This document shows positions 20,024 through 59,567 of a stretch of 64,000 nucleotides of DNA, one piece after another. Numbering within the stretch: the stretch's first letter is position 1; each line of letters starts with the position of its first letter. The notes under the pieces are model-generated. The model had not been told where the DNA came from. It did no database searches and worked only from the letters and a program-made list of their open reading frames with translations. The position numbers and the translations under genes were made by a program. The DNA comes from Methanobacteriota archaeon (GTDB lineage Archaea > Thermoplasmatota > E2 > DHVEG-1). The stretch lies in the NCBI GenBank assembly GCA_963769885.1, contig CAVYNH010000004.1, positions 75,904 through 139,903 on the forward strand, written 5' to 3'.

Positions 20024-20909
20024 CCGGTTTTACCTCAAGAAATAGAATGGTCGGGTTGTTTTTGATGGTTTGGGTAGTTCCTTCGATAGACTTAAAAGAA
20101 AGGATGGTTAATAGGTAGTGAGGTGAGAAGATTTCTCCTGAACCAACAAATGCTGAAATAATAGCCAAGCTTGAAAGAATTGAATGGAAAGCAGGGCGTT
20201 CTTGGTTGATTGCCTGGGTCTTCGGAGGGTTTGCGCTCGTCGTCGCCGGATCCAGGTTCCTGAAAGACTATACAGCCTATTCATTCATGTGGGGTTATAC
20301 GCTCCTAATTACATGCCTTGGAGTTATCATCATGGCTGCTGCCTTTATTGGATGGATTTGGCATTACCGAAAAAAACCACAGGAACCACATTGCCCACTT
20401 ACAGAGAGATCGAACAAATTATAAAGAAGAATCCCTCTCTGAATTATAGAGGATTTTTGATGGATGAAAGTAAGGGGTTCAAATCCTGGGATGATTATTT
20501 TTCCTATTGGGAGAAGAAAGTTCAGGATCTTCGAAAGGAGATGTTGTCACCTGATGCTTGCGGTATGATTTTATCAACTTTCCACACCGGCTTTGGCGTG
20601 TTGACGGTGTTGTGTCATTGCTCTGAAGAAAAAATGACGGGTTATTATCTGAAGTATGACCGTTGAACAGCAAACTTGATGTTGCTTTATCCCTTGCCAG
20701 AACAAAATATATGGACGAACATCCTCCGCTTACGGAGAAATTTATTGAAGCCCTTGGGAATTTGATAAGACAAAGGACAATATCAAAAAAACCGTGACAA
20801 GGCTTGATCCGACTTGTTTCGTAGAATATGAATCTATGGATTAATATTTGGTGTTTCAGCGGGATGCCAATCGATATCAAAAGTAGGGAAGCAGCCCGGT
20901 GGATTCGTG

Positions 20910-21189
20910 GTGCTCGTACCCGCTCCAGAAGGCAACCGCGTGGGTAGCGTTTGCGGAACCCGGGGTGTGCCTCGAACATCCTCTTAGCGCTGTGGGATTT
21001 TAGCATGGTCTCAGCGGCTTGGATGGAGTACCGCTTGGGGACGTTGACCTGGAAGAGGATGTGGTCTTCGGCGAAGCCGAGTTCGCCGAAGCCAAACCCG
21101 TGGTGTTCCAGATCGTGGAACGCCTGGGTGCAGATGTCGATGTGGCTTTGTCTGCTGAAGCAGTGGTAGCGGTTTTTGGTCACAAACAT
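20910..21189 (-). pseudogene. Degenerate IS200-like TnpA (HuH Y1 transposase) remnant
   Basis: Inside track ORF 20479..21366(-): NRYHCFSRQ...GELGFAEDHILFQVNVPKRYSIQAAETMLKSHSAKRMFEAHPGFRKRY resembles TnpA (YHC...PDHVHLLVSIPPK...LKG.SAR.LF.EFP) but HVH is HIL and the Tyr region is lost; GC-rich. Confidence 0.35.
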
Positions 21190-21452
21190 CGTGGTCACCC
21201 AGTTGTTGCGGGTGTCACCCGCAATCTTTTTAGAGCTGCCGCTCGATACCATCTCCATAAATGTATTTTCTCCTGTCGCGCCTTTACAGGGGGCAGGCGG
21301 ACGCCTGCCCGCGCGCGACAAAAAACAGTATATCGAGTGTTTTGGGAAAAAGATGGCGTCTTTCATCAGCGAGTCTTCACTGCGGTTCAGACCGCATAGT
21401 ATTCCCAGTCCAGCAAAGAACCCAAAGAGATGGAACCAACAAAGAGAGCTGG

Positions 21453-26963: not shown

Positions 26964-29900
26964 CTACAGGCCGCTGACGCTGAACACAAACGCGGAGACG
27001 AGATGATGCTGGTCGCTGTCGATGAGGACGTTCCCCTGCTGGTCGCAGAATGCCGCATAGACCCGATATTGCCCATTCCCATGTCTGAGGTCATCGGTTT
27101 TCACAAGGCCATGGAAGATGCTGTCAAGGGCCAACAGCCCGCCGCTTTGAATGAGCCGCGGGGTTTGCTCGTCAACCGCCTTCGTATCCAGCATCCATTG
27201 TCCAGTCCGCGGGTCCTGGAACTCCACCTGGATCAGGAGGTAGCCCCGGATGTCCGTGATCCCAGTGTTCTTGATCTTCGACTGGTTCCGGCACTGCACG
27301 ACCAACCGAGGCTGGCATCCAATCCCCTGGAACTCATAGGAGGAGATAGCGACGTATTCATTCCCGGTCGGCGTGGTCCCGCTGATGTCCCTGCTGCTAC
27401 GTAGGCAGAGTTTTGTCACTCCGATCCGATTGATCCAGCCGAGCCCCTGGCTGTTGAGGGAGAGATCGTTGAACCCGTTGACGAAGTTATTAGTGTTGAA
27501 CTGCCCGCCGTTCCCTGAATACAGGCTCTTGTCGTAATCCGTGACGATGAGAGGATTATGGGGATAGGTCGGCTGTCCGTTCTGGACCGTGATCAGGAAG
27601 TCTGTCGTCGAGTAGTCACCCATTTTATAGAGGCCTAGTGTGGCGGCGTCGATGATGGCGTTCGACGGGATTCGTGTCGTGTCGAAGAAGAGGAATCCTC
27701 GGTAAAGGGAGTATGGTCCGAACGGTGGATTGAATTTTTGCCCGATGAGGATGGAGGCGCCAGTGTTGTCGACGGTGCCTCGGGTGCTTGTCCACGCGGT
27801 GTTGTAATTCGTGTTCGAGTTGTAGATATAGCCATCCGTTGCTTGGGAGTAGAGCGTGATGCTGGGATCGACCTCGGGGAATGCGTCGGTCAGTTCAATG
27901 ACCTCTCCTTTGGTGTACGAGGTTTTGAGCGTACCGACGCTAAGGGTCGCATGGGCGGCGATGTCGAAGTAGAATCCGGTCGCGGTTTGCTCGTTGCCGA
28001 GGTTATCGACGGCCCTGACGCTCACGGGATATCGCCCGGTGAGCCAGGTGTCGTTGAAGTAGCACTCGTATCTGTTCGGGACGCCAGTGACGAGGGTCAT
28101 TGGGATCTGTGTTTCTTTCATTTGTTGGGATTGGTTCGGTAACTGGATTGCTGCTGTTGCTGCCTTCACGCCGCTGATGTTATCCATGATGGTGGCTTGG
28201 ATGTGGATTTGTGAGCCGAAGCCACTCAGTGAGGGCGTGACCAAGACTGACGTGATGTACGGTCCGTCGGCGTCGAACGTGGCATGGTGGGTCTCGGTGG
28301 AGCTTTGATTGCCCTGGATGTCGATGGCGTGGGCGGAGAAGGTGTAGGTGCCGGAGAGTCCGGTGAAGGTGTGGGCGAGCTTGTGGACGCTGTTGTTGTA
28401 GGAGGCTTGGATTTCTTCCCAGCTTAATGCCCTGGCGTAGAGCTGCGGCTCGTCGAGGAGGCCGCGGAAATGGTGGTACTCCGCCGTGTTCTCTTCTGAG
28501 AGGCAGGTCTCCTGGTTGTTTGTGATGTCGCGGACGGTGCCGGTGGTGCTCTGGTCGAATTCGCCGTCGACGTAGAGTCGAAGCTCGGTGCCCTGCCGGA
28601 CGTAGGCGATGTGATGCCATGCCTCGGCGGTGATGGGGATGGTTCCGGTGAGGCTGGTGGTTTGGCCTGGGAGTGATCCTTGCGAGGTGAAGATGCGTGC
28701 GTATGAATTGGAGATGCCGCAGTAGTATCCCTGGCCGGTGGCTTCAGGCTGGTTGCTCAGGATGATGCGGATGCTTGGGGGCTCGAAGGAGACGGGGACG
28801 TTCACCCACGTCATGAAGGTGAAGTCGCCTGTTCCTAAGTTCAGGCTAGGGTCTTTTCCGCAGTGGACCGCATCGTCGATGCCGTCAAAGTCTAATGCCT
28901 TTCCGAATTTCCCGGTGACAATATCGGATGGCCCAAGGCCTCCCCAGAAGACCCCGTTGTTGTGATACGTCGAGTCGTCAATCACACTGGTATCGTTGTA
29001 GTCGTCCATGGGCCAGTAGCCGCGGAGGGTTCTGTTCCAGTCGATGAACGCCGCTGTCTGGAGGCCGTCCTCGACGGTGGCGTTCACTTGTGCCCAGCTC
29101 TGGTTGATCATCGCGTTATCTGGCGGTGTGGGCGGGACAAAGTAGATGATGGGGGTGGGCGTGACCGTGAAGTTGAACTCGTTTGAGTAGTTGGTGTTGT
29201 TCGCGTTGTCGACGGCCCATACCCGGCCTCTGTATTCGCCGCTCTGCTGGGTGTCGGAGAAGGTGAGGAAGTAGCTGTCGTTGATGATGTGGGTCATGGG
29301 GTATTCAGCCGTCGAGTTGTCGGGGGCGGTGATGTTGACCCAGGCGGTGTTGATGCCGCTGTCGTTGTCGGCGATCACTGCCGCTATTGAGGCGTTCATG
29401 CCGACGCCGACGACTTCCGGCGTGACGTCGAGGTACGTGATCTTCGGCGGGGTCATCTCGAAGGTGATGTTGAGCTGTTTTGTTATGGAGTGGAGTTGGT
29501 GTGTATCATCGGTCACGGTCAGCGTGACGTTGTATTGGCCTACGTTTTCATAGAAGTGGGTCACGTTTCGACCATTGGTGATGTTTCCATCCCCGAAATT
29601 CCACGTCCAATCGGTGATATGGAGGCCGTCGCAGGCGGCCGAGGTGTCATTGAAGACGATGGGGTAATCCGGGTTAACGTAGGGGTAGTTCGGGACGCTG
29701 AGGTTGTAGCTAACGTTGAGCGGCATGACCGAGACGTTGACTGAAATCTCCTCTATGTAGTTATTCGCATCCGAGACCCTGAGACGAACGACGTTGTCGT
29801 CTCCGGCTCTTTCGAAGTGATGGACCAGGGTCTGTTCATGGTGGGGGATCAGCTCGTTGTTTATGGTCCACTCATAGTCGACGGGGGCAATCGCGCCGGC

Positions 29901-32828
29901 TACCTGCGCGGCATAGATGGAGTCGATACCGACGACGGACGGCATCGAGGTCGCTCCGAGCACGCTCTGTGCGGATGCCGCTGCGGAACAGGACATCAAC
30001 AGATCCAACGAGAACTTGACCGTGACCGTGAACGGATCGGAGAATACACTCCAGTTTCCGTATCGGCTGACGCCAGGCATGGCTCCATCGAAGAGATACC
30101 CTTTGAAGTCCTCGCGGGCTCTCACCACGATCGTGCGCGATCCCGCCCAATGGTAGACGTGGGATGCGTCGCATGGGTGGTCTTCAACGATCGGCCCGAC
30201 GCGATCATTGTCATTTGTCCACTCATAGTTCCAGTACCATTGATATTGTAATGGGTCTCCTTCGTCATCATCGGTCCCGGTTGAACTGAATGTGGCTTTC
30301 TCTCCGGCATGGACGGTGGTCGGGCCGGTAATGTCCCCTGGCTTGTTGGGGTCGACATTGCTGCGCTTATCTAAATGAACGAAAGGAACCTGCGTCGCGA
30401 TATCATTCGGGCGACTGGTTTCATCCCTGATAATATTGTCAATTCGTCCGGAGGAATTGTACAGCTCGAGGTGGAGTTTATACCAGCCGGCGTTCACCCC
30501 ATTTACCGGCGGCAGCGTCATCGTGATCGTCTTCTGAACGCCGTCGGAGGTCGCTTCGAAATCAAAGTATTTCCACGTGACGTCCTGGCAATCGTCATTT
30601 AGGAGGCTGGCTTTGATTCTCACCTTGTCTGAGGGGAGGGTGGATGTCACGGTGAGCGTCGCCTGAATAGAGTCATCCTTTCCATCCTGATCGATGTCAA
30701 CAACGTTAAAAGTCACCGGTCCGTCGAACTCGCAGTCGGGGTTCAGCATGTAATATTTGAAGATATCCCAGATCAATTCCGTAGAGGCGACGACGTCGCT
30801 GTGATCGATGTATTGCATGCTGTCGCCGTCGGTATAGTTGTCGCCGGCTCGATGCCATTGATCCCAGGAGTATCCGATATATTTTGGTTTGCCAAAAATG
30901 TTCTTGCCGACGACGCTGTCACCCTTGAACAGACAGGTCGTATTTGCTTGGGGAAATGTAGCATTGACCGTCCCCTGTTCTGATCCAAAACCAGATCCAG
31001 CTCTGACCCAGCAATCGTAATTCGAATAGCCGCTCTCTTTTCGAATGGTATCCAATGTTTTTTCTCTCTCTTTTTCTGTTGTGAAAATCGACACTCCGCA
31101 GTTCTTCTGGTTAAAGCCGAGTTGGTCGAGGATCAGCCAATGTACTAGGGTATTACCCAGACTACCTGAATGATTGTCGACGTAGTGTCGAGCGCCTTGG
31201 AATCCGTGTTCCTCCGCCGTTGTGAAAAGGAACGTGAGGTTGTATTTTGGTTTGATGGAGGGATGGTCTTTGACGTATTTTGCTATGGTGAGGACGATTG
31301 CGCACCCGACTCCGGAGTCGCCGGGTGTCTGTCCCCACATGCCGTCGTACCTATTTGAGAAGATCCCAACAGCGTTACCGGGGCTTCCGCCGGGAATCGA
31401 GATGTTGGCATAGACGTCGTCCCCTATCGTCCCTGGATGTCCCGGCGTCTCTTCGAGGTAATCCTGTCTTGCATCGCCGGTAAGAGTCGTGGTGTCATGA
31501 TTCTCGCTTAAGAAATCGCCAGCCGTGTAATTTAACGTCAGTATTGGCAGCATATAGGTAGAATTTTTTTCGGTATTTTGATCGACAACAAAATGGTAGT
31601 CATGCGAATCATATAAAATAACAGCTGTGCAATTGAGTGCCGGACAATTGATGAAATTAAAGAATTGTGTGACGAGTGTGGCAGCAAATAAGACATGAGC
31701 AAAACTTACTTTGGCATGGATGGCTTCGTCCTGGTGGGTGGGGAAATTCACGAGGGTTTCACCTAATGCGATCGTCTTGTATAATGGGTGACTATACCAT
31801 GTCACATTCAACAGTTCACTGTGATCCGGGATTCTACAAAGGAGAACAAATGGCTGGTACGCGGGATAAATACCAAGGAAATCATAACGGAAGGTCAGAT
31901 CCGTCATGAAGTCTCCAAAGTTATCTACTAAGACGACAGGGTAGCTTGACAGGCGTTCTTTCACCTCGTTCCCAGATTCGTTATCAATCCAAAGAACGGG
32001 GTAACAACAATTTGAGGTATCAGTAATGTATTCGATTCCTTGATCATTGTAGTCAACGATGATGACCGCTGTTGCGTCAGTGATGGTATCCAGCTTTGCC
32101 TGCGCTCCTGGCAGATCGTCAATCAGGAAGACGCGGTCAATCATATAGTCTGGTGGGCAAGGATCGTCGGGTCCTATGTAATGAACAATTCCGAAGATCA
32201 CTTTGAAAATATAGTCAGTCAATTTCCCGAATTCACGAACGGTGTAGGAGCCTCTCCCTCCAAATAATTTTCCGAGCTCAAAGGGGACGATCTTGGTATT
32301 ATCGAAGACATAATGCTTTGTCCAATTTTCGCTTCGCGAAGCGGCATTGTCTTTACTTGCTTCTATTGTGTTTTTATAGGGGATATATCCGATTTCCTTC
32401 CGTGAAATAGGATTCATGAATGGGTACGTCGGTGCTCCAGGATCTGTGTTGACGCTCAAGTGAAAATCGGTGTCGTTGATGATGCATGAATAGTTTCTAT
32501 GCGCTTCATTGATGTAGGCAAGTCGCTCTGTTTTTACATTCCCCTGGCCGAACATGGTTTCAAGTCGAGGCACCAGTATTTCATTTGCAGTGTATATTCC
32601 TCCTTTTGAGTCAAAGTTCCTTCCCTTGGGGATATCAGTTTGGTTGTATGCATCGTATATCACATTGGTCAGATTCCCTAACACTTCCCAGAGATAATCA
32701 TAGTCGAGGCCTTCTGGCACAGCCACGGCTTTTGAGACGCTGTTCTTTGGGTCGAATTTGGTTACCATTAGACTGGTTGCCACGAGCATCAAACAGACTA
32801 CTAGTCCGAAAAATTTCCTACTTACCAT
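26964..32828 (-). CDS. Giant secreted multidomain surface protein (M28-peptidase-like, PKD-like and LamG-like domains; many N-glycosylation sequons)
   Basis: 1954 aa; GGAGG RBS; signal peptide MVSRKFFGLVVCLMLVATSLMV; FLFTTAEEHGFQGARHYV (M28-like EE motif); WNFGDGNITNGRNVTHFY and YQWYWNYEW (PKD-like); LRGYWPMDDYNDTSVIDDSTYHNNG...LRLYVDGEF (LamG-like). Confidence 0.8.
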   Translation of the reverse strand: MVSRKFFGLVVCLMLVATSLMVTKFDPKNSVSKAVAVPEGLDYDYLWEVLGNLTNVIYDAYNQTDIPKGRNFDSKGGIYTANEILVPRLETMFGQGNVKTERLAYINEAHRNYSCIINDTDFHLSVNTDPGAPTYPFMNPISRKEIGYIPYKNTIEASKDNAASRSENWTKHYVFDNTKIVPFELGKLFGGRGSYTVREFGKLTDYIFKVIFGIVHYIGPDDPCPPDYMIDRVFLIDDLPGAQAKLDTITDATAVIIVDYNDQGIEYITDTSNCCYPVLWIDNESGNEVKERLSSYPVVLVDNFGDFMTDLTFRYDFLGIYPAYQPFVLLCRIPDHSELLNVTWYSHPLYKTIALGETLVNFPTHQDEAIHAKVSFAHVLFAATLVTQFFNFINCPALNCTAVILYDSHDYHFVVDQNTEKNSTYMLPILTLNYTAGDFLSENHDTTTLTGDARQDYLEETPGHPGTIGDDVYANISIPGGSPGNAVGIFSNRYDGMWGQTPGDSGVGCAIVLTIAKYVKDHPSIKPKYNLTFLFTTAEEHGFQGARHYVDNHSGSLGNTLVHWLILDQLGFNQKNCGVSIFTTEKEREKTLDTIRKESGYSNYDCWVRAGSGFGSEQGTVNATFPQANTTCLFKGDSVVGKNIFGKPKYIGYSWDQWHRAGDNYTDGDSMQYIDHSDVVASTELIWDIFKYYMLNPDCEFDGPVTFNVVDIDQDGKDDSIQATLTVTSTLPSDKVRIKASLLNDDCQDVTWKYFDFEATSDGVQKTITMTLPPVNGVNAGWYKLHLELYNSSGRIDNIIRDETSRPNDIATQVPFVHLDKRSNVDPNKPGDITGPTTVHAGEKATFSSTGTDDDEGDPLQYQWYWNYEWTNDNDRVGPIVEDHPCDASHVYHWAGSRTIVVRAREDFKGYLFDGAMPGVSRYGNWSVFSDPFTVTVKFSLDLLMSCSAAASAQSVLGATSMPSVVGIDSIYAAQVAGAIAPVDYEWTINNELIPHHEQTLVHHFERAGDDNVVRLRVSDANNYIEEISVNVSVMPLNVSYNLSVPNYPYVNPDYPIVFNDTSAACDGLHITDWTWNFGDGNITNGRNVTHFYENVGQYNVTLTVTDDTHQLHSITKQLNITFEMTPPKITYLDVTPEVVGVGMNASIAAVIADNDSGINTAWVNITAPDNSTAEYPMTHIINDSYFLTFSDTQQSGEYRGRVWAVDNANNTNYSNEFNFTVTPTPIIYFVPPTPPDNAMINQSWAQVNATVEDGLQTAAFIDWNRTLRGYWPMDDYNDTSVIDDSTYHNNGVFWGGLGPSDIVTGKFGKALDFDGIDDAVHCGKDPSLNLGTGDFTFMTWVNVPVSFEPPSIRIILSNQPEATGQGYYCGISNSYARIFTSQGSLPGQTTSLTGTIPITAEAWHHIAYVRQGTELRLYVDGEFDQSTTGTVRDITNNQETCLSEENTAEYHHFRGLLDEPQLYARALSWEEIQASYNNSVHKLAHTFTGLSGTYTFSAHAIDIQGNQSSTETHHATFDADGPYITSVLVTPSLSGFGSQIHIQATIMDNISGVKAATAAIQLPNQSQQMKETQIPMTLVTGVPNRYECYFNDTWLTGRYPVSVRAVDNLGNEQTATGFYFDIAAHATLSVGTLKTSYTKGEVIELTDAFPEVDPSITLYSQATDGYIYNSNTNYNTAWTSTRGTVDNTGASILIGQKFNPPFGPYSLYRGFLFFDTTRIPSNAIIDAATLGLYKMGDYSTTDFLITVQNGQPTYPHNPLIVTDYDKSLYSGNGGQFNTNNFVNGFNDLSLNSQGLGWINRIGVTKLCLRSSRDISGTTPTGNEYVAISSYEFQGIGCQPRLVVQCRNQSKIKNTGITDIRGYLLIQVEFQDPRTGQWMLDTKAVDEQTPRLIQSGGLLALDSIFHGLVKTDDLRHGNGQYRVYAAFCDQQGNVLIDSDQHHLVSAFVFSVSGL

Positions 32829-33585: not shown

Positions 33586-33795
33586 CTAATCACTTCGAGA
33601 GTCGATATGTAACCCATTAATTTGATTTTGGTTAAAATAATTAAAATTTAAAGACTGTATATTTACCTTTGTATCAATCTTTGTATCAATCTTTGTATCA
33701 ATAATAGTTAAAGTAAATTTATAAAAAATAAAATTAATGGTAACATTTATTACTAAACTAATTCCAACAATTATTATAATTAAACTCAGCTCCAT
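33586..33795 (-). CDS. Small hydrophobic ORF containing an IDTK tandem repeat (doubtful)
   Basis: 69-aa track ORF; N-terminal hydrophobic segment; three tandem 12-bp DNA repeats (ctttgtatcaat) encode IDTKIDTKIDTK; starts 13 nt after the stop of 33808..35229. Confidence 0.2.
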   Translation of the reverse strand: MELSLIIIIVGISLVINVTINFIFYKFTLTIIDTKIDTKIDTKVNIQSLNFNYFNQNQINGLHIDSRSD

Positions 33796-33807
33796 GGTCT
33801 TTTTCCT

Positions 33808-35229
33808 TTATATGGGATTATTATACTGAACAAGCATGAAAGGAGTATTAATTTCCTCTTTCATGCCCCATAATTCAACCGAACCACTTAATGTTCTTAT
33901 CTGATTTACGACTTTTTGTACAATTTGTGGATCATCCTCTTGAACTAAACGCGCTTTAATTAAAAGAATCCAGATAGTCTTAACAATGTTTTTAAGAGGA
34001 GATGTCGTTAAATCAACCAATTCTTCAAAACTATCTACCAAAGTCCTCCGATCCTTCTCCCGAATGGCTGCGGGAATAGAAGTTACTCCTGCTGAGAGTG
34101 TATTAATAATTTCACGTCTTCTACCTTTGCGTTTAAGTTCTTCTAATAATTTATCCGAAAAAGTCCCAAATGCGCTGTGTAAGTCTATAGTATTTTTTTT
34201 ATACATCTTTATAGGATCTTTTTGAAAAGAATATGTATGCCATGTTCTATTCATAACTTCAATTATATTCCCTCTCAGCATTTTCTCTTCTTCGGTAACT
34301 TCTTTGTCATGCTTTCGAATCTCAATAACCAAATTTACCGCTTGCTTAACCTCCCACTTTTGCATGGGTATTTGAACTATTTTTGCTGCATGAACAGTTT
34401 CAGTTTCGCTACTTCCGAAGGGAAATGCCGGCGCTAATATTTTTCCATCTTCGTCTGTTAATTGTAAATCATCATCAATGGCCATCATAGTAAAACCTCC
34501 TCGACTGTATATCTTTGGGGCCACAATATAATGCAAAGTCCTGGCAGTTCTGTAAGCTGTCAAAGGTGAATTATTTAATGAATTCTCTATCCGCTCAACA
34601 TTATGATTTAACCCATAAAGTTCCTGCCATTTAACCCTTTCAGCAATAAAAAAAGGAAGTCTACTCAAGTCTTGAATCAGTGGATTTTCCTGTTTTTTAA
34701 TATTATACTCTTCTCTTGCATGCTTATCAAATCCATTAATTCTCAATTGATACTCTTTAGATTTTTCAGATACTTCTCTTTGAAACTCAAGATCACCATC
34801 CAAACGTGCATCCTCAAATAATTGAGCACGAATAAGAGGCTTATCTTTAGGAAGTTCTTTAATAAACTTATCAAAGATATCCTTTTGATAACTTTCAAGG
34901 CTATTTCCAATAATAGGTACGAGTAAATCCGCTTTTATTAACTCCAATACTTGATCTAAAGATGCACCACAATAATTAAAAAATTCATCATCACTCCGAT
35001 AAGGTGGTAAATACATAATAACTTTGTCTAAAAAGACTGGATAGAGCCATACTGGAATGAAATTACCTGTATACGCAGGTTTATCTCCCCTTCTATAATA
35101 AGTGTCGAGATTCCCTAATTCATAATATGGTAAAAATATACTACGAGGTTCTTTCTTTTCTTCCAACTGATCGATACTGAAAATTGTTTTCTCCTTAATA
35201 AGTTCCTCAAAGCTGCTCATTTCCTCCAC
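33808..35229 (-). CDS. Hypothetical protein (473 aa), overlapping-coupled to the upstream DUF692-like gene
   Basis: Track ORF; start overlaps end of 35217..35939 by 13 nt; no motif recognised. Confidence 0.5.
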   Translation of the reverse strand: MEEMSSFEELIKEKTIFSIDQLEEKKEPRSIFLPYYELGNLDTYYRRGDKPAYTGNFIPVWLYPVFLDKVIMYLPPYRSDDEFFNYCGASLDQVLELIKADLLVPIIGNSLESYQKDIFDKFIKELPKDKPLIRAQLFEDARLDGDLEFQREVSEKSKEYQLRINGFDKHAREEYNIKKQENPLIQDLSRLPFFIAERVKWQELYGLNHNVERIENSLNNSPLTAYRTARTLHYIVAPKIYSRGGFTMMAIDDDLQLTDEDGKILAPAFPFGSSETETVHAAKIVQIPMQKWEVKQAVNLVIEIRKHDKEVTEEEKMLRGNIIEVMNRTWHTYSFQKDPIKMYKKNTIDLHSAFGTFSDKLLEELKRKGRRREIINTLSAGVTSIPAAIREKDRRTLVDSFEELVDLTTSPLKNIVKTIWILLIKARLVQEDDPQIVQKVVNQIRTLSGSVELWGMKEEINTPFMLVQYNNPI

Positions 35230-35939
35230 CCCTTAATCATATTTAATTGTTCAACAATATCTTTTTCTGATTCTATGTTTAATATCAATTCTTTATTTAA
35301 ATTTTTTTCTAAAATAAGTTTAAGTATTTTTTCCGCATCATTAGAATAATAAAAAGGTTCATTTATATCATACCAAACTCCATCCTTCCGTAACGGAGAA
35401 TTCACGTGAATCTCATAAATCAAATCAATTCCTATCCTTTTCACGAAATCAACAGTATCTATCTTAAACTCACAAGCAGAAATCATCGTATGTGCGATAT
35501 CGAGCAAAATTCCACATCTTGTTTTCCTTGCTATTTTTGAAATAAATTCATACTCACAAACAAATTCATAGGCTCCAGTAGGATGATAGTCCAAGTTCTC
35601 CACTAAAATCATTCCTTTATAACCTTCTTCGCCTAATACATCTTTGACTATATTCAACGACTCGGAAATGCTTTTGAAAATTTCGCCCATTGATAGAGTT
35701 TCTCCTATAGCAAAATTATGTTTGTCTATCCCCTTCATTCCAACTATTTTAGATGAGAAACCGAGATGAAAAGAAATTACAAAAGGCTGTAAAATTTTAT
35801 AAATCTTGTAAATGGAAGAACCACTATCCTTTAACATCTCCTTAACTTCGTCTGAAACCAGATTTAACGTTACGCTCTTATTATGCTCGTGGAGATATTG
35901 AACATGCATTGAAATTGGAAACTTCCTTAAGATTTCCAT
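35217..35939 (-). CDS. Xylose-isomerase-like TIM-barrel protein, DUF692-like (MbnB/MNIO-type) candidate
   Basis: FHLGFSSKIVG, ILVENLDYHPTGAYEF, CGILLDIAHTMISA, EIHVNS follow the order of recalled DUF692 blocks (HGVSLS / ENxSSY / CxLLLDVNN / HLAGH); N-terminus shorter than typical. Confidence 0.45.
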   Translation of the reverse strand: MEILRKFPISMHVQYLHEHNKSVTLNLVSDEVKEMLKDSGSSIYKIYKILQPFVISFHLGFSSKIVGMKGIDKHNFAIGETLSMGEIFKSISESLNIVKDVLGEEGYKGMILVENLDYHPTGAYEFVCEYEFISKIARKTRCGILLDIAHTMISACEFKIDTVDFVKRIGIDLIYEIHVNSPLRKDGVWYDINEPFYYSNDAEKILKLILEKNLNKELILNIESEKDIVEQLNMIKGWRK

Positions 35940-36055
35940 TTTAGATTTAATGAGTTCAGTTTCCAGATCTTTAACCTCTACAAAGTCAATACGAGGGTCT
36001 GTAAGTATTACTTGTTCAAGTTCTGGATTATAGGGATTATATGTAACACCGATCT

Positions 36056-36727
36056 TTATATCTCCACCATCCTATGAACAATAAATGCTTCCGCATATTG
36101 AACTTTGGCTTGAAATCCTCTGAAAATAGCTTTTGAAACTATCACTTTTTTATTCATATATGGTTTCCCTGCTTGTGTTTTATGCAGTTTAATAGCCTCA
36201 ATTTTCTTTTGTACATATGCTGTGGTGTCTACAAAATAATTAGGTGAAAATGAAGTTCTCGTCGTTGGTGATTCATAAAACAGCATTGTTTTTATTCTTC
36301 TTGCTGCATGAAGGCTGATAAGCGATGTGTTAACATGATCCAAATGATCGTCTTCAAAATGATGAGTGTAGATTGCGTCTGGGTTTACTTCCATTATGTG
36401 CTTATACACATCCTCAATAACCTTTTTGTTAATTTTAATCCCATTGTCTGGAAGCCCGAGAATTTTTATATTTTCTTTTTTTACTCCAAGAAGCTTTAAG
36501 GCATTTTTTGTTTCATTTTCTCGCGTTCGTCCTTTCAGAACATTTCTCTGTTTTTCATCCAACTCCCCTCTATCCTCAAGTTTGTCATCGCTTACACCTT
36601 TTTCGCCTCTCGAAAGTATCAAGATACACATATCATCTCCATTTTCTGCATGCTTTGCTAAACAGCCACCTAATCCAAGTTCTACATCATCAGGATGAGC
36701 CCCAATAGCCAAGATTTTAATTGACAT
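36056..36727 (-). CDS. PIG-L/LmbE-family deacetylase
   Basis: ILAIGAHPDDVELGLGG and HHFEDDHLDH motifs. Confidence 0.7.
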   Translation of the reverse strand: MSIKILAIGAHPDDVELGLGGCLAKHAENGDDMCILILSRGEKGVSDDKLEDRGELDEKQRNVLKGRTRENETKNALKLLGVKKENIKILGLPDNGIKINKKVIEDVYKHIMEVNPDAIYTHHFEDDHLDHVNTSLISLHAARRIKTMLFYESPTTRTSFSPNYFVDTTAYVQKKIEAIKLHKTQAGKPYMNKKVIVSKAIFRGFQAKVQYAEAFIVHRMVEI

Positions 36728-42864: not shown

Positions 42865-44757
42865 TCACTGTCTATGGAAGTGTGGGAAACAGTTCAGGAG
42901 GGTGACTTGGAGTTCGTCGCTGTCGTACAGGCTCAGAGGCCGGCCGTACTCAGAGGTGTAGCCGTAGACGCTGAGGGTTGCCTCCGTCAGGAACATCCTG
43001 AGGTTCAGTCTCCAGGTGAAGGGCCGGCTGGCGTCGGTGTGGTACAAGGTGCCGTCGAGGTAGAACTCGACCTTGTCGATCGCGGCGACGGCGTTGACCT
43101 CGATGTCGAGGGGGCCGAGGACGAAGACGCCTTTGTGGGGGCGCTGGAGCGGCCGGTTCCATAGATATATCGTGTTGTTCTGTGGTCTGGTGATCTGTAG
43201 GGACTTGACGACCGAAAGCGGTGTTTTTTCTGAGCGGACGTAGCCGGGATTTTCCGCGTAGACCTGGTAGTCACCGGGTGTGGTGCATTGGATGATCGCG
43301 GTCCCGGACTCATCAGTCGCGTAGCGGGTGGTCCCGACCCAGATCGTGATGTTCCCGACAGGGGCCATGGTCTCGTTGTAGGTATGCACAAGGAGTTCCT
43401 CTGAGACGTTGATGGTGTGCTTGCCAAGGGTGATGCGCAGGGCGTGGGCGTCCCATTGTTCCAGGTAGCCGAAGAGGACCTGCCGGGTGGTGTTGTTGAG
43501 GAGGTAGTGTCCGGCGTCGATCATGGGCAGCGTGTAGTCGACCCAGTAGTGCCACCAGTCGGAGTCGTTGGCGATGGTCTTGACGTAGAAGGCGCCCCAG
43601 TCGGGATAGTAGATGATGTCGTAGGTGATGTGTGCGGCGTCCAGGGCGGTGACCAGGGCGCTGAGGACCGTGGGGTCTGGGAAGGTGTAGTGTTGCATCT
43701 GCCCACTGCTTTGGTTGTAGGCCTGGATGGTGGTGTTGCTGCAGTGGATGGTGCCGTTGAAGAGGGTTGTGGTTTTTCCTTCGACGCGCACGGTTCCTGT
43801 CCATTCGGCTCCGGTGGAGGGGTCCTGGTGATGGGTCGGCTGCCAGATCCTCACGGGGTAAGGATGTGCGAGGAGCGCGCAGAGGACGTAGGAGGTCATC
43901 CATTCGGGGTTGAGGTTCTGGGTGGTGCTCCAGTTGAAGCCGCCGTCGGTGCGCTGGAGGCTTGTGAGGTAGTCGATGGGTGTGTGGTTGTTCTTCTGCC
44001 AGGATGGGCTGGTGGGGTCTTGGTCGGCTTTGATAAGGGCGCAGGTCGTCCAGGCGGTGGAGGCGGCATTGGTGGTCCCCCAGGATTGGAAACCTCCGTT
44101 ATTAGCTTGAGTGGTTTTGAGGTAGGCGAGGGCGGTGGCGATGGACGTGTCTTGCGGGTCTTCTCCTGCGGCGGTGAGTGCCATGATGGCGGCCGCGGTG
44201 GTGTCGGCGTCGCCCCAGCCGCCGTTATTTTGTTGGTAGGTGAGGATGTAGGCTTTCTCCTGCTGGATGAGGGGTGCCTGTGGTGCGGTGCCGCAGGCGA
44301 CCAGGGCGAGGATGCCGAAGAGGTCGTCGTAGAGGAGGGTGGGGTTTCCAATCTGTGTGCCGTCGTAGAAGCTTTCCAGTTTGGTGAGGAGGTTTGTTCC
44401 TGCGACTGTGGTGGGGTCTTGGCCGCAGGCGACCAAGGCGAGGGTCTGTCGCTGCCAGTCTGTAGCCGTGTTGTTGTCGAGGAGGGTGAGGCTGTCGACG
44501 AGGTAGGCGGTGAGGCGGGGGTCTGTTTTGTTGGCGGCGGCGTAGGCCATGGCTGCCCATGCTGAGGTGGCGGGGCCAGCGATGCTTCCGTCCGGTGCCT
44601 GTATTGTTTGGAGGTATTGGAGGGCGTTGGTGATGACAGGGTCGTCGGGTGAGTAGGGGTAGGTCGCTTGTGGGTCTGCGGTGACGAGAGATAATGGTTG
44701 GGTGATGAGGGGGAGGGCTAGTGTGAGGAGAAGGAGGGTGGCTGTTGTTTTTTTCAT
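42865..44757 (-). CDS. Secreted protein with prenyltransferase/terpenoid-cyclase-like alpha/alpha-toroid repeats and a C-terminal beta-rich domain
   Basis: Start set at internal ATG 44757 (MKKTTATLLLLTLALPLITQPLSLV signal peptide); repeats GGWGDADTTAAAIMALTAAGEDP, NNGGFQSWG, TDGGFNWS; track ORF extends to 45210 but that extension overlaps the divergent ArsR gene and is Ser/Thr/Arg-rich. Confidence 0.6.
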   Translation of the reverse strand: MKKTTATLLLLTLALPLITQPLSLVTADPQATYPYSPDDPVITNALQYLQTIQAPDGSIAGPATSAWAAMAYAAANKTDPRLTAYLVDSLTLLDNNTATDWQRQTLALVACGQDPTTVAGTNLLTKLESFYDGTQIGNPTLLYDDLFGILALVACGTAPQAPLIQQEKAYILTYQQNNGGWGDADTTAAAIMALTAAGEDPQDTSIATALAYLKTTQANNGGFQSWGTTNAASTAWTTCALIKADQDPTSPSWQKNNHTPIDYLTSLQRTDGGFNWSTTQNLNPEWMTSYVLCALLAHPYPVRIWQPTHHQDPSTGAEWTGTVRVEGKTTTLFNGTIHCSNTTIQAYNQSSGQMQHYTFPDPTVLSALVTALDAAHITYDIIYYPDWGAFYVKTIANDSDWWHYWVDYTLPMIDAGHYLLNNTTRQVLFGYLEQWDAHALRITLGKHTINVSEELLVHTYNETMAPVGNITIWVGTTRYATDESGTAIIQCTTPGDYQVYAENPGYVRSEKTPLSVVKSLQITRPQNNTIYLWNRPLQRPHKGVFVLGPLDIEVNAVAAIDKVEFYLDGTLYHTDASRPFTWRLNLRMFLTEATLSVYGYTSEYGRPLSLYDSDELQVTLLNCFPHFHRQ

Positions 44758-44812
44758 AAGTTTCTTGCCTCTTGGGGTGTGTAGGGAGTCGGTAGGTTTA
44801 AATGTAGCAAAA

Positions 44813-45358
44813 ATGATGATGATTGTTAGTACTATGGGTAACGATGTGTTTAAGGCCTTGAGTAGTCCGACGCGGGTGAGGATTCTCAAGGAGCTTGCGG
44901 GCCGGGAGCTGCATGTGTCCGAGGTTGCGCGAAGGCTTAAGTTGTCGGTGCCTGTGGTCGCTCGGCACGTGCGGGTGCTGGAGGGTGCTGGGTTGGTTCG
45001 GAAGCGGGTTGTGGGGAATCTATATTTGTTGTCGTCGGTGGGGGTGAACGTGGAGGAGGCGTTGGATCCGCTGGGGGAGGAGGCGCGGGTGTCGATTGGG
45101 GAGCGTGAGAGCCTGTTTGATGCGCTGCGGCAGGTGCCTGGGGTGGAGATTACGCGGGTGGGGGATGTGCAGTATATCACGTCGATTAACGGGGAGCGGG
45201 GGTACTTCATCTATGAGGTGGATGGGAAGGCGCCGGGGGTGCCGATCGATCAGTACCGGCCGGGGCGGACGGTGCGGCTGCAGGTGAAGCGGCTGGTGCC
45301 GGTTCGGAAGAAGACGGTCGAGGTACAGGTGCAGCGGGGGGAGAACCAGGAAAAATAA
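44813..45358 (+). CDS. ArsR/SmtB-family HTH transcriptional regulator, divergent from the toroid/DUF4430 operon
   Basis: VFKALSSPTRVRILKELAGRELHVSEVARRLKLSVPVVARHVRVLEGAGLV; start chosen at internal ATG so as not to overlap the divergent gene. Confidence 0.6.
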   Translation: MMMIVSTMGNDVFKALSSPTRVRILKELAGRELHVSEVARRLKLSVPVVARHVRVLEGAGLVRKRVVGNLYLLSSVGVNVEEALDPLGEEARVSIGERESLFDALRQVPGVEITRVGDVQYITSINGERGYFIYEVDGKAPGVPIDQYRPGRTVRLQVKRLVPVRKKTVEVQVQRGENQEK

Positions 45359-56050: not shown

Positions 56051-56341
56051 ACATTGATCTCCTTAGGAAAAAATAGCGGGTCTTTTTCCGTTGAAAATCG
56101 GAAATGCTATTAACCACCTCGGTTTCGTCACCTATGAGCATTGATGACAGGCAGCCAATCCATACCTGAGGGAGTCCGAACACCGGGGACGCTCACAGGT
56201 AATTTTTTATCCCAGGGATCGTATATAATCCCTACCAGATCGCCGTATGACCTGGTAGGAGGCGTATCAAAAAAATGGACCCACACTACACCACAGTTAG
56301 GCGAACATTTTGCAAACAATCAACCCCTACACGGGGAGGAA

Positions 56342-57493
56342 ATGGTGAATCGACCTTATGTAATTCAACCGTACCTTAATGTAGACGAAAGACCACGAAT
56401 CGATGATAGAAAGCTGATCATCTCGTTGCATGTCGACCGATCTAAATATACCACCCATGAAGAAATATACCATGAGATCACAAAATGGTGGGTCAACATC
56501 AAGAATCGATCCGCAACTACCGTAAAAGACCGCATATGCCATGCACGATCTATGCAACACCACCCGATCTACCCGGTAGACTGGCTGCAATTTGACCCAG
56601 TGCAAATCCTAAACCAATTACTCTACCGGCAGATCCACGAGTATCCAGAACTCGCTAAAAAGACCGGCAGACCAACCTACGGAGTGACACAGTTAAACAA
56701 TCTCTGGAAAGTCGTACGAATGTTCTCAGAGGCGTACGGCGTCGATATTTCGCATTGGGGCTGGACTCCGCCAACTCCGCCAGAGCCACAAGTCAAAATC
56801 GTTCCCAGGCCAGAAACCGTCAACAAACTCATGCACCATTGGTACACGAACGATCGATTCGAGAACGCCCTCATTCGAACGCTGTTAACCGTTGGTTTTC
56901 ACACTGGAGTACGACCAGAGGAACTTGTCATCCTGAAGGTTAAAGATGTGCGCTTTGATGAAGGATATCTCCTCATCCACGAACAAAAAAAGAAATACCG
57001 AGAGCGACAAGTATGGATCGATGAATCGGTTCTCTCAAGCCGCCAACAAAACAGCCTACGAAACTGGGTAATCCTTTGGAGACCGCGAAAAGCCAACGAG
57101 AAATCTGGAGATTTTCTGTTCATCCAGAAGAATGGCACCCCGTTTCCATCTGCAGAAGCCCTTCGCATGTACCTCATGCCTTTCTGCAAGCCAGTATGGC
57201 CTGATTTCAAGCCTAGAATCATGAGGGACTGGAGCGCCATCGCACGGTTGATACGAACAAAAATCGAGACAAAGAAATGGGATACCAGGATCGTGAAAAA
57301 CGATCTCGGGCATAAACATGAGAAAACGACGGAAAGCTATATTCGATTCGCGGAAAACTACTATCGCAGGGACCCATACGATTGGCTACGGGCCGTCCTG
57401 AAATTTCACCCAGACAGCAAACGAATGCTGTCTCTGAGACAGGAATACGGGCCGAGCCAAGAAGTTACCGTAATAGTTCCGCACGCAATGTAG
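56342..57493 (+). CDS. Tyrosine recombinase/integrase adjacent to the 3' end of tRNA-Arg
   Basis: Start set at ATG 56342 preceded by GGGGAGGAA; catalytic region VGFHTGVRPEEL...LGHKHEKTTESYIRF (H...Y); ends 70 nt from the tRNA 3' end. Confidence 0.7.
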   Translation: MVNRPYVIQPYLNVDERPRIDDRKLIISLHVDRSKYTTHEEIYHEITKWWVNIKNRSATTVKDRICHARSMQHHPIYPVDWLQFDPVQILNQLLYRQIHEYPELAKKTGRPTYGVTQLNNLWKVVRMFSEAYGVDISHWGWTPPTPPEPQVKIVPRPETVNKLMHHWYTNDRFENALIRTLLTVGFHTGVRPEELVILKVKDVRFDEGYLLIHEQKKKYRERQVWIDESVLSSRQQNSLRNWVILWRPRKANEKSGDFLFIQKNGTPFPSAEALRMYLMPFCKPVWPDFKPRIMRDWSAIARLIRTKIETKKWDTRIVKNDLGHKHEKTTESYIRFAENYYRRDPYDWLRAVLKFHPDSKRMLSLRQEYGPSQEVTVIVPHAM

Positions 57494-57563
57494 GTACATG
57501 TGGAATCTCAACAACGGGTAAAAACAGGGCTCCTGAGGTACGAGTCCCTCCTGTTGAATTTTA

Positions 57564-57637
57564 CGGACCTGTCGGGATTTGAACCCGAGTCAGAGGCTCC
57601 GGAGGCCTCTGTGATATCCAAGCTACACTACAGGTCC
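57564..57637 (-). tRNA. tRNA-Arg (anticodon CCG)
   Basis: Own fold: acceptor GGACCTG/CAGGTCC, anticodon stem GAGGC/GCCTC with loop CTCCGGA, T-arm TCGGG-TTCAAAT-CCCGA, discriminator G; 74 nt. Confidence 0.75.
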
Positions 57638-57740
57638 ACGAGTGTTTCTTTGCTATCAATCCAACCTTAATTAGATTTTCCACAAGCAACATAAACCACC
57701 ACGAGCCTCGACCACATATAATAAAACCGGAGAACCACGT

Positions 57741-58253
57741 ATGGAACTCTCAGATGCCATCGCCAGGCGCGTCAGCATCCGCGCCTATCAGGACCGCCCC
57801 ATCCCTAAAGACCTTATCACCGAGTTCATCCGACAGGCACACCTCGCGCCCTCCGCCGGCAACCTCCAAGCCCGCGACTTCATCGTCGTCGACAACCAAG
57901 GCGTAAAAGACCAGCTTGCCGCCGCCGCCAACCACCAGACCTTCATCGCCGACGCCCCCTACATCATCGCCGTCTGCGCCAACACCCAGCGCATCGCCAC
58001 CTACGCCTGCCGCGGAACCAGCCTCTACATGATCCAGGATGCGGCCGCCGCCGTCGAACACCTCCTCCTGCTCGCCGCTGACCATGGCCTGGGCAGCTGC
58101 TGGATTGGCGCCTTCGACGATCAACAAGTCGCACGAATCCTTGACCTGCCCTCGCATGTCATCCCTCAGGCGCTCGTTCCCATCGGCTACCCCGCGAAAC
58201 CCGGCAGCCCCCACCAGCGACACCGCCTCCAGATTCACTGGAACGAATGGTGA
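57741..58253 (+). CDS. Nitroreductase-family protein
   Basis: RVSIRAYQDRPIP, LAPSAGNLQ, GLGSCWIGAFD motifs typical of NADH/FMN nitroreductases; GC-rich. Confidence 0.7.
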   Translation: MELSDAIARRVSIRAYQDRPIPKDLITEFIRQAHLAPSAGNLQARDFIVVDNQGVKDQLAAAANHQTFIADAPYIIAVCANTQRIATYACRGTSLYMIQDAAAAVEHLLLLAADHGLGSCWIGAFDDQQVARILDLPSHVIPQALVPIGYPAKPGSPHQRHRLQIHWNEW

Positions 58254-58300
58254 ACAAACAAAGGGAAAAAAAGAGGAAAAAATAGAACCAAAGAGCTGTT

Positions 58301-58453
58301 CTATTTCTTGAACTCGGTGTAGCCGCACTTGCCGCAGCTCACCCGGTTTTTATGCTCGGCGAGGAACACGCCGTCGCCGCACTTCGGACAGCTCTTCCGC
58401 GTGCGGACAATCTTGTCACCTTCGACCTTAAAGACTTCACGTTTCTCAACCAT
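58301..58453 (-). CDS. rps27ae: 30S ribosomal protein S27ae
   Basis: Own translation [50 protein letters not shown] (C4 zinc ribbon); below track length cutoff. Confidence 0.75.
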
Positions 58454-58459
58454 GAACCC

Positions 58460-58855
58460 TCACTTCTTCTCCTCAGCGGCGGGCTTCGCAGTGGCAGGCT
58501 TCGCCTGGCCGCCCTCCTTCTTCTCTTCCTTCTTTTCTTCTTTCTTCTCTTCTTTCTTCTTCGCCTTCTTCTTCGTCCCCATCCCATTGCGCTTTAGGAT
58601 CGGGTCAGCCTCCGCGGCCTTGGCATCAGCCGGACTTGCGTACACCTTGGCGTACCCCAAGGTCGTCCGCATCCCAAACGAAGACCGCATGTGGTCGATC
58701 ACCACGTTTTCCTTCTTCGCGCTCAGTTTCTCCGCGAGCTCACTGCGAATAAGCTCGCGCTTTGGCGTCCCCTCGTTCTCATGTCGGACGAGGAACTGGA
58801 CCTCCATGCGCTTGAGCAGGACATTGTCATTCTTCGATTGAATCTCAACTTCCAT
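58460..58855 (-). CDS. rps24e: 30S ribosomal protein S24e with Lys/Glu-rich C-terminal tail
   Basis: MEVEIQSKNDNVLLKRMEVQFLVRHENEGTPKRELIRSELAEKL...; conserved neighbourhood with rps27ae. Confidence 0.75.
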   Translation of the reverse strand: MEVEIQSKNDNVLLKRMEVQFLVRHENEGTPKRELIRSELAEKLSAKKENVVIDHMRSSFGMRTTLGYAKVYASPADAKAAEADPILKRNGMGTKKKAKKKEEKKEEKKEEKKEGGQAKPATAKPAAEEKK

Positions 58856-58861
58856 AGACCA

Positions 58862-59365
58862 TCACTTCATACGCTGCAAGACATCGTTGACTTTCTTCTT
58901 ATGCTCTGGGGTGGCACTGACCACTACGACCCCCCTATTCGGCAATCCATATATTATTGTTGCGCCTCCTGGCGCAAGCGCAATCGCGGCCAGCCCGGCA
59001 AGGTCCTCCTCGCCGTCGACCTCAATCCGCGCCGGGTACAGCTCCGGATGCCCAAACAGTCGCTCTAACGCCACCCATAGCTCATCCGAGATCGTCCCCG
59101 GCATGTTACGGACCTTGATGACGGTTTTCCCATACCTCGTGATCAGGTCTTTCATCTCCGCCGAGCATGGACGCCGCTCCAGGATAAAATCAACCACGCA
59201 GATACACGGATGGATCCCGGCGGACAAGACCGTGTACGTCACCCGGTCGCCAATAGACACAATACAGCGCTCGTTCCGAAGCAGATCGATCAACGCAGGA
59301 CCTGAAACCAGCCGGCCGATCGGCTCCTTGAGCTCCGCCTCAAGACTCTTTGGGAGGACGTACAT
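58862..59365 (-). CDS. DUF359-family protein (archaeal GTP-dependent dephospho-CoA kinase-like)
   Basis: 167 aa; position between rps24e and spt4 as in the conserved archaeal cluster; family call from memory of this neighbourhood plus size. Confidence 0.5.
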   Translation of the reverse strand: MYVLPKSLEAELKEPIGRLVSGPALIDLLRNERCIVSIGDRVTYTVLSAGIHPCICVVDFILERRPCSAEMKDLITRYGKTVIKVRNMPGTISDELWVALERLFGHPELYPARIEVDGEEDLAGLAAIALAPGGATIIYGLPNRGVVVVSATPEHKKKVNDVLQRMK

Positions 59366-59381
59366 AAACGCAAAAAAAACG

Positions 59382-59567
59382 TCAGCTGACCTTCAGGGCA
59401 TACTTCCCCGGCTTCGTGATGTTCATCTTCTTGGCGATCTGCGACCTCTCCGGGTTCAACACGACGACATACCCACGCCAGCGGTTCACGGTCTGCTCAG
59501 AACACGCGGGACACCGGTCCTTCTCCGTCAGCAGATGGCAGTTCTTACACGCATTGAGGGTTTTCAT
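59382..59567 (-). CDS. spt4: Transcription elongation factor Spt4 (RNA polymerase subunit E'')
   Basis: MKTLNACKNCHLLTEKDRCPACSEQTVNRWRGYVVVLNPERSQIAKKMNI (C4 zinc ribbon); ATG overlaps rpoE' stop (ATGA); track ORF 59382..59678 is over-extended upstream. Confidence 0.75.
   Translation of the reverse strand: MKTLNACKNCHLLTEKDRCPACSEQTVNRWRGYVVVLNPERSQIAKKMNITKPGKYALKVS

Follow-up and report, generated by a model that had tools for sequence, protein, structure and literature searches.

Predicted divergent MNIO (DUF692) enzyme and PIG-L deacetylase encoded by a rare, modular gene cassette in an archaeal contig

We analysed a 64,000-nucleotide stretch of DNA (hereafter the window) from a Methanobacteriota archaeon (GenBank assembly GCA_963769885.1, contig CAVYNH010000004.1, positions 75,904 to 139,903), in which four genes of the minus strand form one tightly packed operon between positions 36727 and 33586 (Table 1). 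They encode a metallo-deacetylase of the PIG-L/LmbE family (hereafter PIG-L), a predicted TIM-barrel metalloenzyme of the MNIO family (DUF692, PF05114), a large orphan protein (P473) and a small predicted membrane protein. The best reading of the sequence comparisons is that these genes constitute an undescribed enzyme cassette and not a classical peptide-antibiotic cluster of the kind producing ribosomally synthesized peptides that undergo modification after translation (RiPPs). Judged by its sequence, the MNIO clade is a new variant within a known enzyme family, housed in an undescribed, rare and modular cassette. A fuller account, whose chances we put a little short of even, is that the cassette is a rare, horizontally mobile, modular operon with a core formed by PIG-L and the divergent MNIO and with a swappable large partner, and that it behaves as an accessory module of conflict type. 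To our knowledge, all characterised MNIO enzymes mature ribosomal peptides, with partners of the DUF2063, MbnC or RRE type. The present clade departs from this pattern by the lack of a precursor peptide, by an obligate LmbE/PIG-L companion, by large orphan partners whose exchange also involves part of the enzyme and by its occurrence in an archaeon.

A preliminary description of this locus, made from the sequence alone, had proposed that the second gene product resembles DUF692 enzymes, and profile comparisons uphold this assignment. Against PF05114 (cut-off 25), the MNIO scores 44.9 bits in a 240-aa form and 48.3 bits in its 280-aa full-length form, well above the threshold, whereas its scores against the sister family PF01261 (30.8 and 31.8 bits, respectively; cut-off 31.1) lie at the threshold. 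PF05114 is also carried by 16 of the 17 aligned relatives. The best NCBIfam models are the RiPP maturases BufB (1.5e-13), HvfB and ApyH, with no sugar isomerase among them, and all score far under their equivalog cut-offs. When the family profile was compared with solved structures, only 3BWW (3e-4), TglH (0.03) and MbnB (0.046) were reached; the MNIO of the cassette belongs to a remote clade. The MNIO belongs to the same clan (that of PF01261) as the endonuclease IV and xylose-isomerase-like barrels; its full-length score for PF01261 is marginally over threshold, and the D-x-x-H motif after strand 6 of the MNIO resembles what we take to be the trinuclear-site motif of endonuclease IV (Nfo). 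The MNIO differs from these barrels by its much higher scores to MNIO models: the endonuclease IV model NF002199 (nfo) gives 15.9 bits for a cut-off of 315, and the family profile matches endonuclease IV chains of the PDB with E-values of 0.14-0.8.

The predicted metal site agrees with this assignment. In MbnB, Fe1 is bound by H54, H90 and the bridging E133, Fe2 by D163, H192 and E239, and Fe3 by N166, D208 and H210 (PMC9060507). Eight residues are invariant in the alignment of the cassette family (H12, H58, E114, D147, H150, H178, D191 and E223, in the numbering of the 240-aa form), and the alignment places residues at nine of the nine metal-ligand positions, those corresponding to the six essential di-iron ligands of MbnB (H12, H58, E114, D147, H178 and E223) being identical. 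HMMER alignments to motifs of 3BWW, TglH and MbnB cover H58, E114, D147 and H178; H12 and E223 were assigned to their ligands via order and motif only. In these alignments, SFHLG of the clade faces SDHIG of MbnB, ENLDY faces ENTSY of 3BWW, LLDIAH faces FDISN of MbnB and LDLHN of TglH, EIHV faces IHIA of 3BWW and VHLA of TglH, and WYDINEP faces YHDWHD of TglH. At the third site, H150, D191 and N193 stand where MbnB has N166, D208 and H210, so that H and N are swapped and D is kept; P0045 retains D-x-H at this site. Two distant relatives, near-identical MNIO-like proteins of Anaerolineae type (L015, 6734-7636, and L032, 824-1723), which are standalone and adjoin prolyl-tRNA synthetase-like genes, differ from each other by N or H at the D-x-x-(N/H) position, and this difference suggests that both residues are interchangeable at the first position of the third site.

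The first gene product belongs to the LmbE/PIG-L deacetylases, as had also been proposed, with a match to PF02585 of 1.1e-28 and 100.8 bits (cut-off 28.2). Its closest solved relatives are BcZBP (LmbE-related), the archaeal diacetylchitobiose deacetylase Dac and BshB1, which acts on N-acetylglucosamine-malate (GlcNAc-malate). The cassette enzyme shares with them the Pfam domain, the AHPDD and H-x-x-H zinc/catalytic motifs, over both of which it aligns to BcZBP (2IXD), and a length of about 225 aa. Among the cassette copies D13, D14, H128 and H131 are invariant and H11 nearly so. It differs from these deacetylases in three respects: it lies under every NCBIfam equivalog cut-off, including that of BshB1 (TIGR04001, 93.4 bits against 182.5), it has no bacillithiol, mycothiol or chitin context, and it is always coupled to an MNIO.

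The third gene had been described as overlapping the MNIO gene by 13 nt, an artefact of choosing the longest open reading frame (ORF). Its most likely start is the ATG at 35220, which overlaps the MNIO stop as ATGA, is preceded by GGTGGAGG and gives a product of 470 aa, in agreement with the public record (P0047). Neither a family in Pfam, NCBIfam, PADLOC or PHROGs nor a fold matches P473. Its AlphaFold2 model is confident mainly over residues 1-235 (predicted local distance difference test, pLDDT, of about 75-94 except in the loop 48-57), where a beta-alpha-beta pattern is followed by helices. The most conserved motif of the family, HYxVxPKxYSRGG, lies at the edge of a segment modelled with very low confidence (residues 236-289), and we regard this region as a lead for a binding or modified loop, not as a result. 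In several loci, the MNIO is followed by a different protein of about 390 aa (P390), whose family comprises 6 database proteins. Comparison of P473 with P390 by hhalign gave a probability of homology of 0.2 %, and no invariant cysteine is present in either protein. A motif found in both by BLAST, P-x(5)-GG(F/W)...D..L.LT.ED.K, is not significant (E = 3.5) and is kept as a lead only, and the AlphaFold2 model of P390 was discarded as unusable (mean pLDDT 47).

The cassette was followed through 35 loci, gathered from context look-ups and two collection scans and searched with profiles of the cassette proteins. PIG-L and this MNIO clade share one operon in about 20 distinct loci, mostly with PIG-L directly first and a 4-nt overlap. 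The carriers are AT-rich, archaea-like contigs resembling the window as well as metagenome-assembled and single-amplified genomes labelled Pirellulales, Spirochaetales and Dehalococcoidia. The family is rare: a search with the MNIO retrieved 46 proteins from 5.8 billion, and the 473-aa family comprises 11 proteins, or 20 representatives in a profile search of 1.84 billion. The association of the 240- and 473-aa proteins recurs at other loci, and all members of the P473 family whose context was examined, including the remote P0060, adjoin PIG-L and MNIO; the one exception is P0074, the most distant member, which lies on a short contig. The Dehalococcoidia cassettes have an MNIO with 47 % identity, an inverted gene order and an adjacent PIG-L that is only distantly related (profile score of about 52 against about 440). 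Since even this MNIO still adjoins a PIG-L, the pairing is retained where the deacetylase is highly divergent, and the latter may have been replaced.

Around this core, gene content varies, and some variants insert genes between PIG-L and MNIO. The arrangements include PIG-L, a TIR-like protein (139 aa), a 482-aa protein and MNIO (L017); PIG-L, MNIO, a TIR-like protein (141 aa) and a 500-aa protein (L020); PIG-L, a 505-aa protein, a 111-aa membrane protein and MNIO (L030); PIG-L, proteins of 281 and 275 aa, an 83-aa membrane protein and MNIO (L021); PIG-L, a 432-aa protein and MNIO (L029); and PIG-L, MNIO and a protein of more than 463 aa (L026). The P473 superfamily includes, as distant members (1e-19 to 7e-7), the proteins of 482, 500, 505 and 463 aa, but not those of 432, 281 and 275 aa. 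The two TIR-like proteins match Pfam TIR_2 at about 1e-4, below threshold, and the ThsB/TIR models of PADLOC at 1.4e-6 (L020, ThsB, the best of several) and 0.023. Small membrane proteins are present in four cassette variants, and those of L011, L021 and L030 are not homologous to the 69-aa protein of the window.

The exchange of partners can be followed most closely in two syntenic loci, L024 and L025, whose neighbouring genes are 74-87 % identical and whose PIG-L proteins are 84 % identical, whereas their third genes are unrelated (18 %). Their MNIO proteins are 88 % identical over the N-terminal two-thirds and 43 % over the C-terminal third. In pairs of loci sharing the same type of partner, by contrast, the C-terminal identity is at least as high as the N-terminal one (71 and 70 % for L024/L001; 74 and 83 % for L006/L022). 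Because L024 and L025 diverge in this part of the enzyme while the same-partner pairs do not, the exchanged unit, as judged from these alignments, is the C-terminal third of the MNIO plus the partner gene. This provides indirect evidence that the MNIO and the large protein may contact each other, in the way that MbnC caps MbnB (PMC9060507). A divergently transcribed, conserved triad of genes, encoding a radical-SAM enzyme, a UDG-like protein and a protein of 259 aa (L024, 1869-4826; L025, 1675-4632; also in L004 and L012), flanks the cassette in these two loci with different third genes; as it is absent from the other loci, this triad is probably an unrelated DNA-repair or DNA-modification module.

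The closest known counterparts of the cassette are the pairs MbnB/MbnC (methanobactin), TglH/TglI (3-thiaglutamate), BufB/BufC and HvfB/HvfC (bufferins/oxazolins). The cassette shares with them PF05114 and the TIM-barrel fold signature, invariant counterparts of H54, H90, E133, D163, H192 and E239, and a translationally coupled downstream gene whose co-variation with the enzyme is what an obligate partner would be expected to show. It differs from them in several ways. The MNIO is very distant (PDB profile matches of 3e-4 to 0.05, NCBIfam equivalog cut-offs widely missed), has H in place of N166 and N in place of H210 at the third site, and exhibits a distinctive ENLDYHPTGAYE(Y/F)VCE motif. 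Its partners, with 390-505 aa and no recognised fold, are not of the DUF2063, MbnC or RRE kind; a PIG-L deacetylase precedes the enzyme instead of a Cys-containing precursor; and the cassette is found in an archaeon.

If the cassette is the modular operon that we favour, the MNIO would function in a complex with the large partner cognate to it, in the manner of MbnB and MbnC. The MNIO and the deacetylase would then modify the partner protein itself or a substrate presented by this partner, and the deacetylase might strip an acyl or acetyl group, either ahead of the metal-dependent step or following it. Neither a housekeeping pathway nor a classical RiPP cluster would fit as well as an accessory system of conflict or defence type, because a conserved core is combined with swappable partner, TIR-like and membrane modules, with a patchy distribution across phyla, with mobile neighbourhoods and with frequent decay. 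Should the enzyme act on its partner or on a metabolite, the chemistry and biology of MNIO proteins would reach beyond RiPPs.

Several observations weigh against this account. The TIR-like matches are below the Pfam threshold and concern only two of about a dozen architectures. Genes for a PDDEXK nuclease, PIN, ParA, a Type ISP restriction-modification enzyme, an integrase, HicB and SbcCD occur near the cassette in other loci, but such defence or mobile neighbours are found in some loci and not in all. PADLOC-DB v2.0.0 has no match for PIG-L, MNIO, P473, the 69-aa ORF, P390 or the variant large proteins. P473 bears no DUF2063, MbnC or RRE signature and does not resemble the known fold of MNIO partners, and the position of recombination breakpoints could by itself explain why the MNIO C-terminus varies along with the partner. 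The nearest solved relatives of PIG-L, being deacetylases of GlcNAc type, hint at a carbohydrate substrate, and the Dehalococcoidia cassette abuts genes for DegT, GFO/IDH, NTP-transferase, epimerase and glycosyltransferase proteins, which is a sugar-nucleotide context. In a single-amplified genome of Omnitrophota (L016, 1959-8471), a PF05114 TIM barrel (42.8 bits) is encoded with a PIG-L in a sugar operon, pointing to a possible non-RiPP role for MNIO-like proteins; this operon also encodes a cytidylyltransferase-like protein (from its sequence motif) and DegT- and NeuB-like proteins (from sequence resemblance). Finally, the MNIO and P473 have no relatives among the viral contigs of IMG/VR, on which ground a viral origin of the cassette was rejected.

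In a bolder version of the favoured account, which we consider unlikely, PIG-L and MNIO would be the core of unrecognised modular conflict systems, antiviral or directed against mobile elements, in archaea and bacteria, and would arm or signal to exchangeable effectors (P473-like, P390-like, TIR-like and small membrane proteins) post-translationally. The cassette recalls Thoeris-like modular anti-phage systems (ThsB TIR) by its swappable effector or partner genes, its optional TIR-like (ThsB-like) and small transmembrane modules, its patchy distribution across phyla, its mobile-element and restriction or toxin neighbours and its frequent pseudogenisation. It differs from them in that its core has no PADLOC match and includes no nucleotide cyclase, SIR2 or known sensor. 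No link of MNIO/DUF692 with PIG-L/LmbE or with defence was found in the searchable literature. If this version were true, it would provide the first MNIO function beyond peptide natural products and the first in archaea, as well as a new enzymatic logic for prokaryotic immunity. The partner-swap pair L024/L025 and the intact homologues L007 and L033 offer ready-made material for testing these readings.

The copy in the window itself differs from its relatives at the start of the MNIO gene. The 240 aa attributed to this protein correspond to the ORF from its first ATG, at 35939, and do not represent its full extent: the frame is open 43 codons further upstream (IKIGVTYNPYNPELEQVILTDPRIDFVEVKDLETELIKSK), and the apparent 116-nt gap after PIG-L is MNIO coding sequence. 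All 45 database relatives are about 280-290 aa long and begin with MKIGVTYNPYN...DFIEVKNLE, and the same N-terminus is encoded in the window, giving a protein of about 280 aa. Where the relatives have ATG, the window has ATA (36059-36057), which overlaps the PIG-L stop as ATAA, several relatives overlapping as ATGA; no in-frame ATG, GTG or TTG occurs between the preceding stop and this region. Since an independent assembly from another run is identical over 3.9 kb, the ATA did not arise by misassembly. One G-to-A substitution at 36057 would save the stop of PIG-L (TGA to TAA) while abolishing the start of the MNIO (ATGA to ATAA). A programmed frameshift fusing PIG-L to the MNIO was rejected, as a TAG lies in the MNIO frame 5 codons upstream of the ATA and no slippery heptamer is present. 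The MNIO start in the window thus reads as non-canonical or lost, and this copy is probably weakly expressed or starting to decay.

It is a serious, if somewhat doubtful, possibility that the window holds a non-functional remnant, in which the loss of the start inactivates the central enzyme and leaves the locus idle in this genome; this would be independent of what the cassette does elsewhere. Besides the ATA itself, the internal ATG argues for this, as initiation there would cost the first barrel strands and no ribosome-binding motif precedes it. The cassette is, moreover, often damaged in the AT-rich clade. The closest relative, sampled twice independently (L002, 8001-10268, and L003, 832-3099), shows the same frameshifts in MNIO (200 + 60 aa) and P473 (120 + 329 aa) in both samples, the MNIO of L029 is broken and L031 is a remnant. 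The decayed cassette of L002/L003 nevertheless retains the small membrane ORF. On the other hand, the frame in the window is open through all 43 upstream codons, and the protein sequence that they encode is conserved. The cassette retains the overlap with the upstream stop and has a GGTGGAG motif immediately before the ATA, so that termination-reinitiation there is conceivable; PIG-L, P473 and the small ORF are intact and of full length, and the independent assembly has the identical sequence. The mutated start codon makes this copy a weaker experimental subject.

The preliminary description had suggested a candidate peptide-modification cluster. Its operon and DUF692 family stand, whereas neither a peptide nor a canonical partner (DUF2063, MbnC or RRE) was found; the precursor is thus missing and the enzyme is not an ordinary sugar isomerase. 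No small ORF of 20-130 aa is conserved in or around the cassette across more than 10 loci, and no Cys-containing precursor is conserved among the cassettes. The only recurring block outside the genes lies upstream of PIG-L in L001, L004, L006 and L012. It was rejected as a Cys-containing peptide and reads as a non-coding promoter or 5' untranslated region, since its indels are not multiples of three and it contains TGTTATACT. The 69-aa ORF of the window, which begins 12 nt past the P473 stop, was correctly described as hydrophobic with IDTK repeats: it has a strongly hydrophobic helix (residues 5-23) and an exact threefold 12-nt repeat (Tandem Repeats Finder: period 12, 3.0 copies, 100 % matches). 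Cysteine is absent from it, and neither Pfam nor NCBIfam gives a family match. Its only homologue (56 aa; phmmer 1.7e-12) occupies the same position in the nearest relative, L002/L003, and lacks the repeat, which by this comparison is a recent in-frame expansion.

In our estimate, it is improbable that the cassette is a RiPP-like or protein-modification cluster of the kind usual for MNIO enzymes. Here the MNIO would oxidise an operon-encoded product, namely the small membrane protein in its tail or the large protein in a conserved loop that is predicted to be disordered; the large protein would be the substrate or a new type of partner, PIG-L would serve as a tailoring amidase, and the cassette would yield a matured protein or a natural product and no immune device. 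This would agree with the membership in PF05114, with the RiPP maturases as best NCBIfam matches and with the co-variation of the MNIO C-terminus with the partner. A survey of the MNIO landscape arranges the family around Cys-containing precursors and also reports long, protein-sized substrates and a partner as the usual gene after the MNIO (PMC12452194). In L017, L029 and L030, the large protein stands before the MNIO, in the usual position of a precursor. As candidate sites of modification, the HYxVxPKxYSRGG motif begins the very-low-confidence segment of P473, and L002 shows conservation of the 69-aa ORF in its tail (NFNYFNQNQING). Against such a cluster stand the absence of a conserved small precursor, of an invariant cysteine in P473 and P390 and of an RRE, DUF2063 or MbnC-like fold or signature; furthermore, the partners are non-homologous among cassettes, the 69-aa ORF is present in one other lineage only and the cassette has no conserved protease or exporter.

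We think it unlikely that the cassette serves a small-molecule or glycan pathway. In such a pathway, a sugar of GlcNAc type, a sugar conjugate or a glycan would be deacetylated by PIG-L and then isomerised or oxidised by the TIM barrel, with the large proteins as accessory or transfer factors specific to each lineage, and the output would be a modified surface glycan or an amino-sugar compound of low molecular weight. The solved deacetylases nearest to PIG-L (acting on GlcNAc, diacetylchitobiose and GlcNAc-malate), the MNIO score just above the threshold for xylose-isomerase-like TIM barrels (31.8 against 31.1 bits), the sugar genes beside the Dehalococcoidia cassettes and the distant PF05114 protein of L016, whose operon is of nonulosonic-acid type and also holds a PIG-L, are in agreement with this view, as is the position of the window cassette between genes for very large secreted proteins. 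However, most loci have no adjacent sugar-metabolism gene, signatures of glycosyltransferases or kinases are absent from the large partners, it would be atypical of sugar pathways to have TIR-like and small membrane add-ons and partner swapping with a breakpoint inside an enzyme, and the MNIO maturase models score far higher than any isomerase model.

Table 1. Positions of the cassette genes and of other features in the window
Feature	Coordinates	Strand	Remarks
PIG-L/LmbE-family metallo-deacetylase, 223 aa	36056..36727	-	operon gene 1; Pfam PF02585
Divergent MNIO (DUF692, PF05114), TIM-barrel predicted metalloenzyme, ~280 aa	35217..36059	-	ATA at start position; assigned by PF05114 score
TIM-barrel ORF from first ATG, 240 aa	35217-35939	-	from ORF list
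Orphan partner protein P473, 470 aa	33808..35220	-	ATG 35220 (most likely start); longest ORF from GTG 35229 (33808-35229, 473 aa)
Small single-pass membrane protein (predicted), 69 aa	33586..33795	-	hydrophobic helix
Exact 12-nt x3 tandem repeat encoding (IDTK)x3, inside 69-aa ORF	33667..33702	-	Tandem Repeats Finder
OLD-family ATPase-TOPRIM nuclease	7028-8977	-	PADLOC Old 1.9e-53; also GajA/AriA-like
Mre11-like phosphoesterase	9233-10366	+	
Rad50/SMC-like ATPase	10363-13053	+	
IS110-family transposase	13302-14279	+	
IS200/Y1-type transposase	20479-21366	-	
High-GC part	26964-32828	-	
High-GC part	42865-45210	-	
High-GC part	about 58000-62000		
Phage-type integrase	56141-57493	+	PF00589
tRNA-Arg(CCG)	57563-57638	-	70 nt from integrase
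tRNA	62522-62642	+	121 nt; Rfam 50.8 bits; absent from ARAGORN output

The layout of the locus is as previously described: the four ORFs lie on the minus strand at the coordinates then reported, the genes are tightly packed into one operon, and the motifs AHPDDVELG, HLGFS, VENLDY, CGILLDIAH and EIHV are all found in the sequence. A scan of the operon for promoters and terminators gave signals at background level only. The suggestion of an AT-rich acquired context holds in part. The GC content of the cassette (33-34 %) equals the baseline of the window, so composition alone does not mark it as acquired; the mobile elements in the window support an island context. GC content is strongly mosaic along the window, with a baseline of 33-38 % and values of 50-58 % in the genes for very large secreted proteins, between which the cassette sits, and in the 58-62 kb stretch. 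The high-GC genes encode a protein of 1954 aa, in which M28 peptidase, PKD and LamG domains are present, and one of 781 aa, and many overlapping spurious ORFs in these parts are a by-product of the high GC content.

The window is rich in mobile elements (Table 1). The OLD-family nuclease adjoins the pair formed by the Mre11-like phosphoesterase and the Rad50/SMC-like ATPase. The integrase stands beside tRNA-Arg(CCG), an arrangement that usually marks the boundary of an integrated element. In the second tRNA, the extra length suggests an intron, and this intron-containing tRNA points to an archaeal host.

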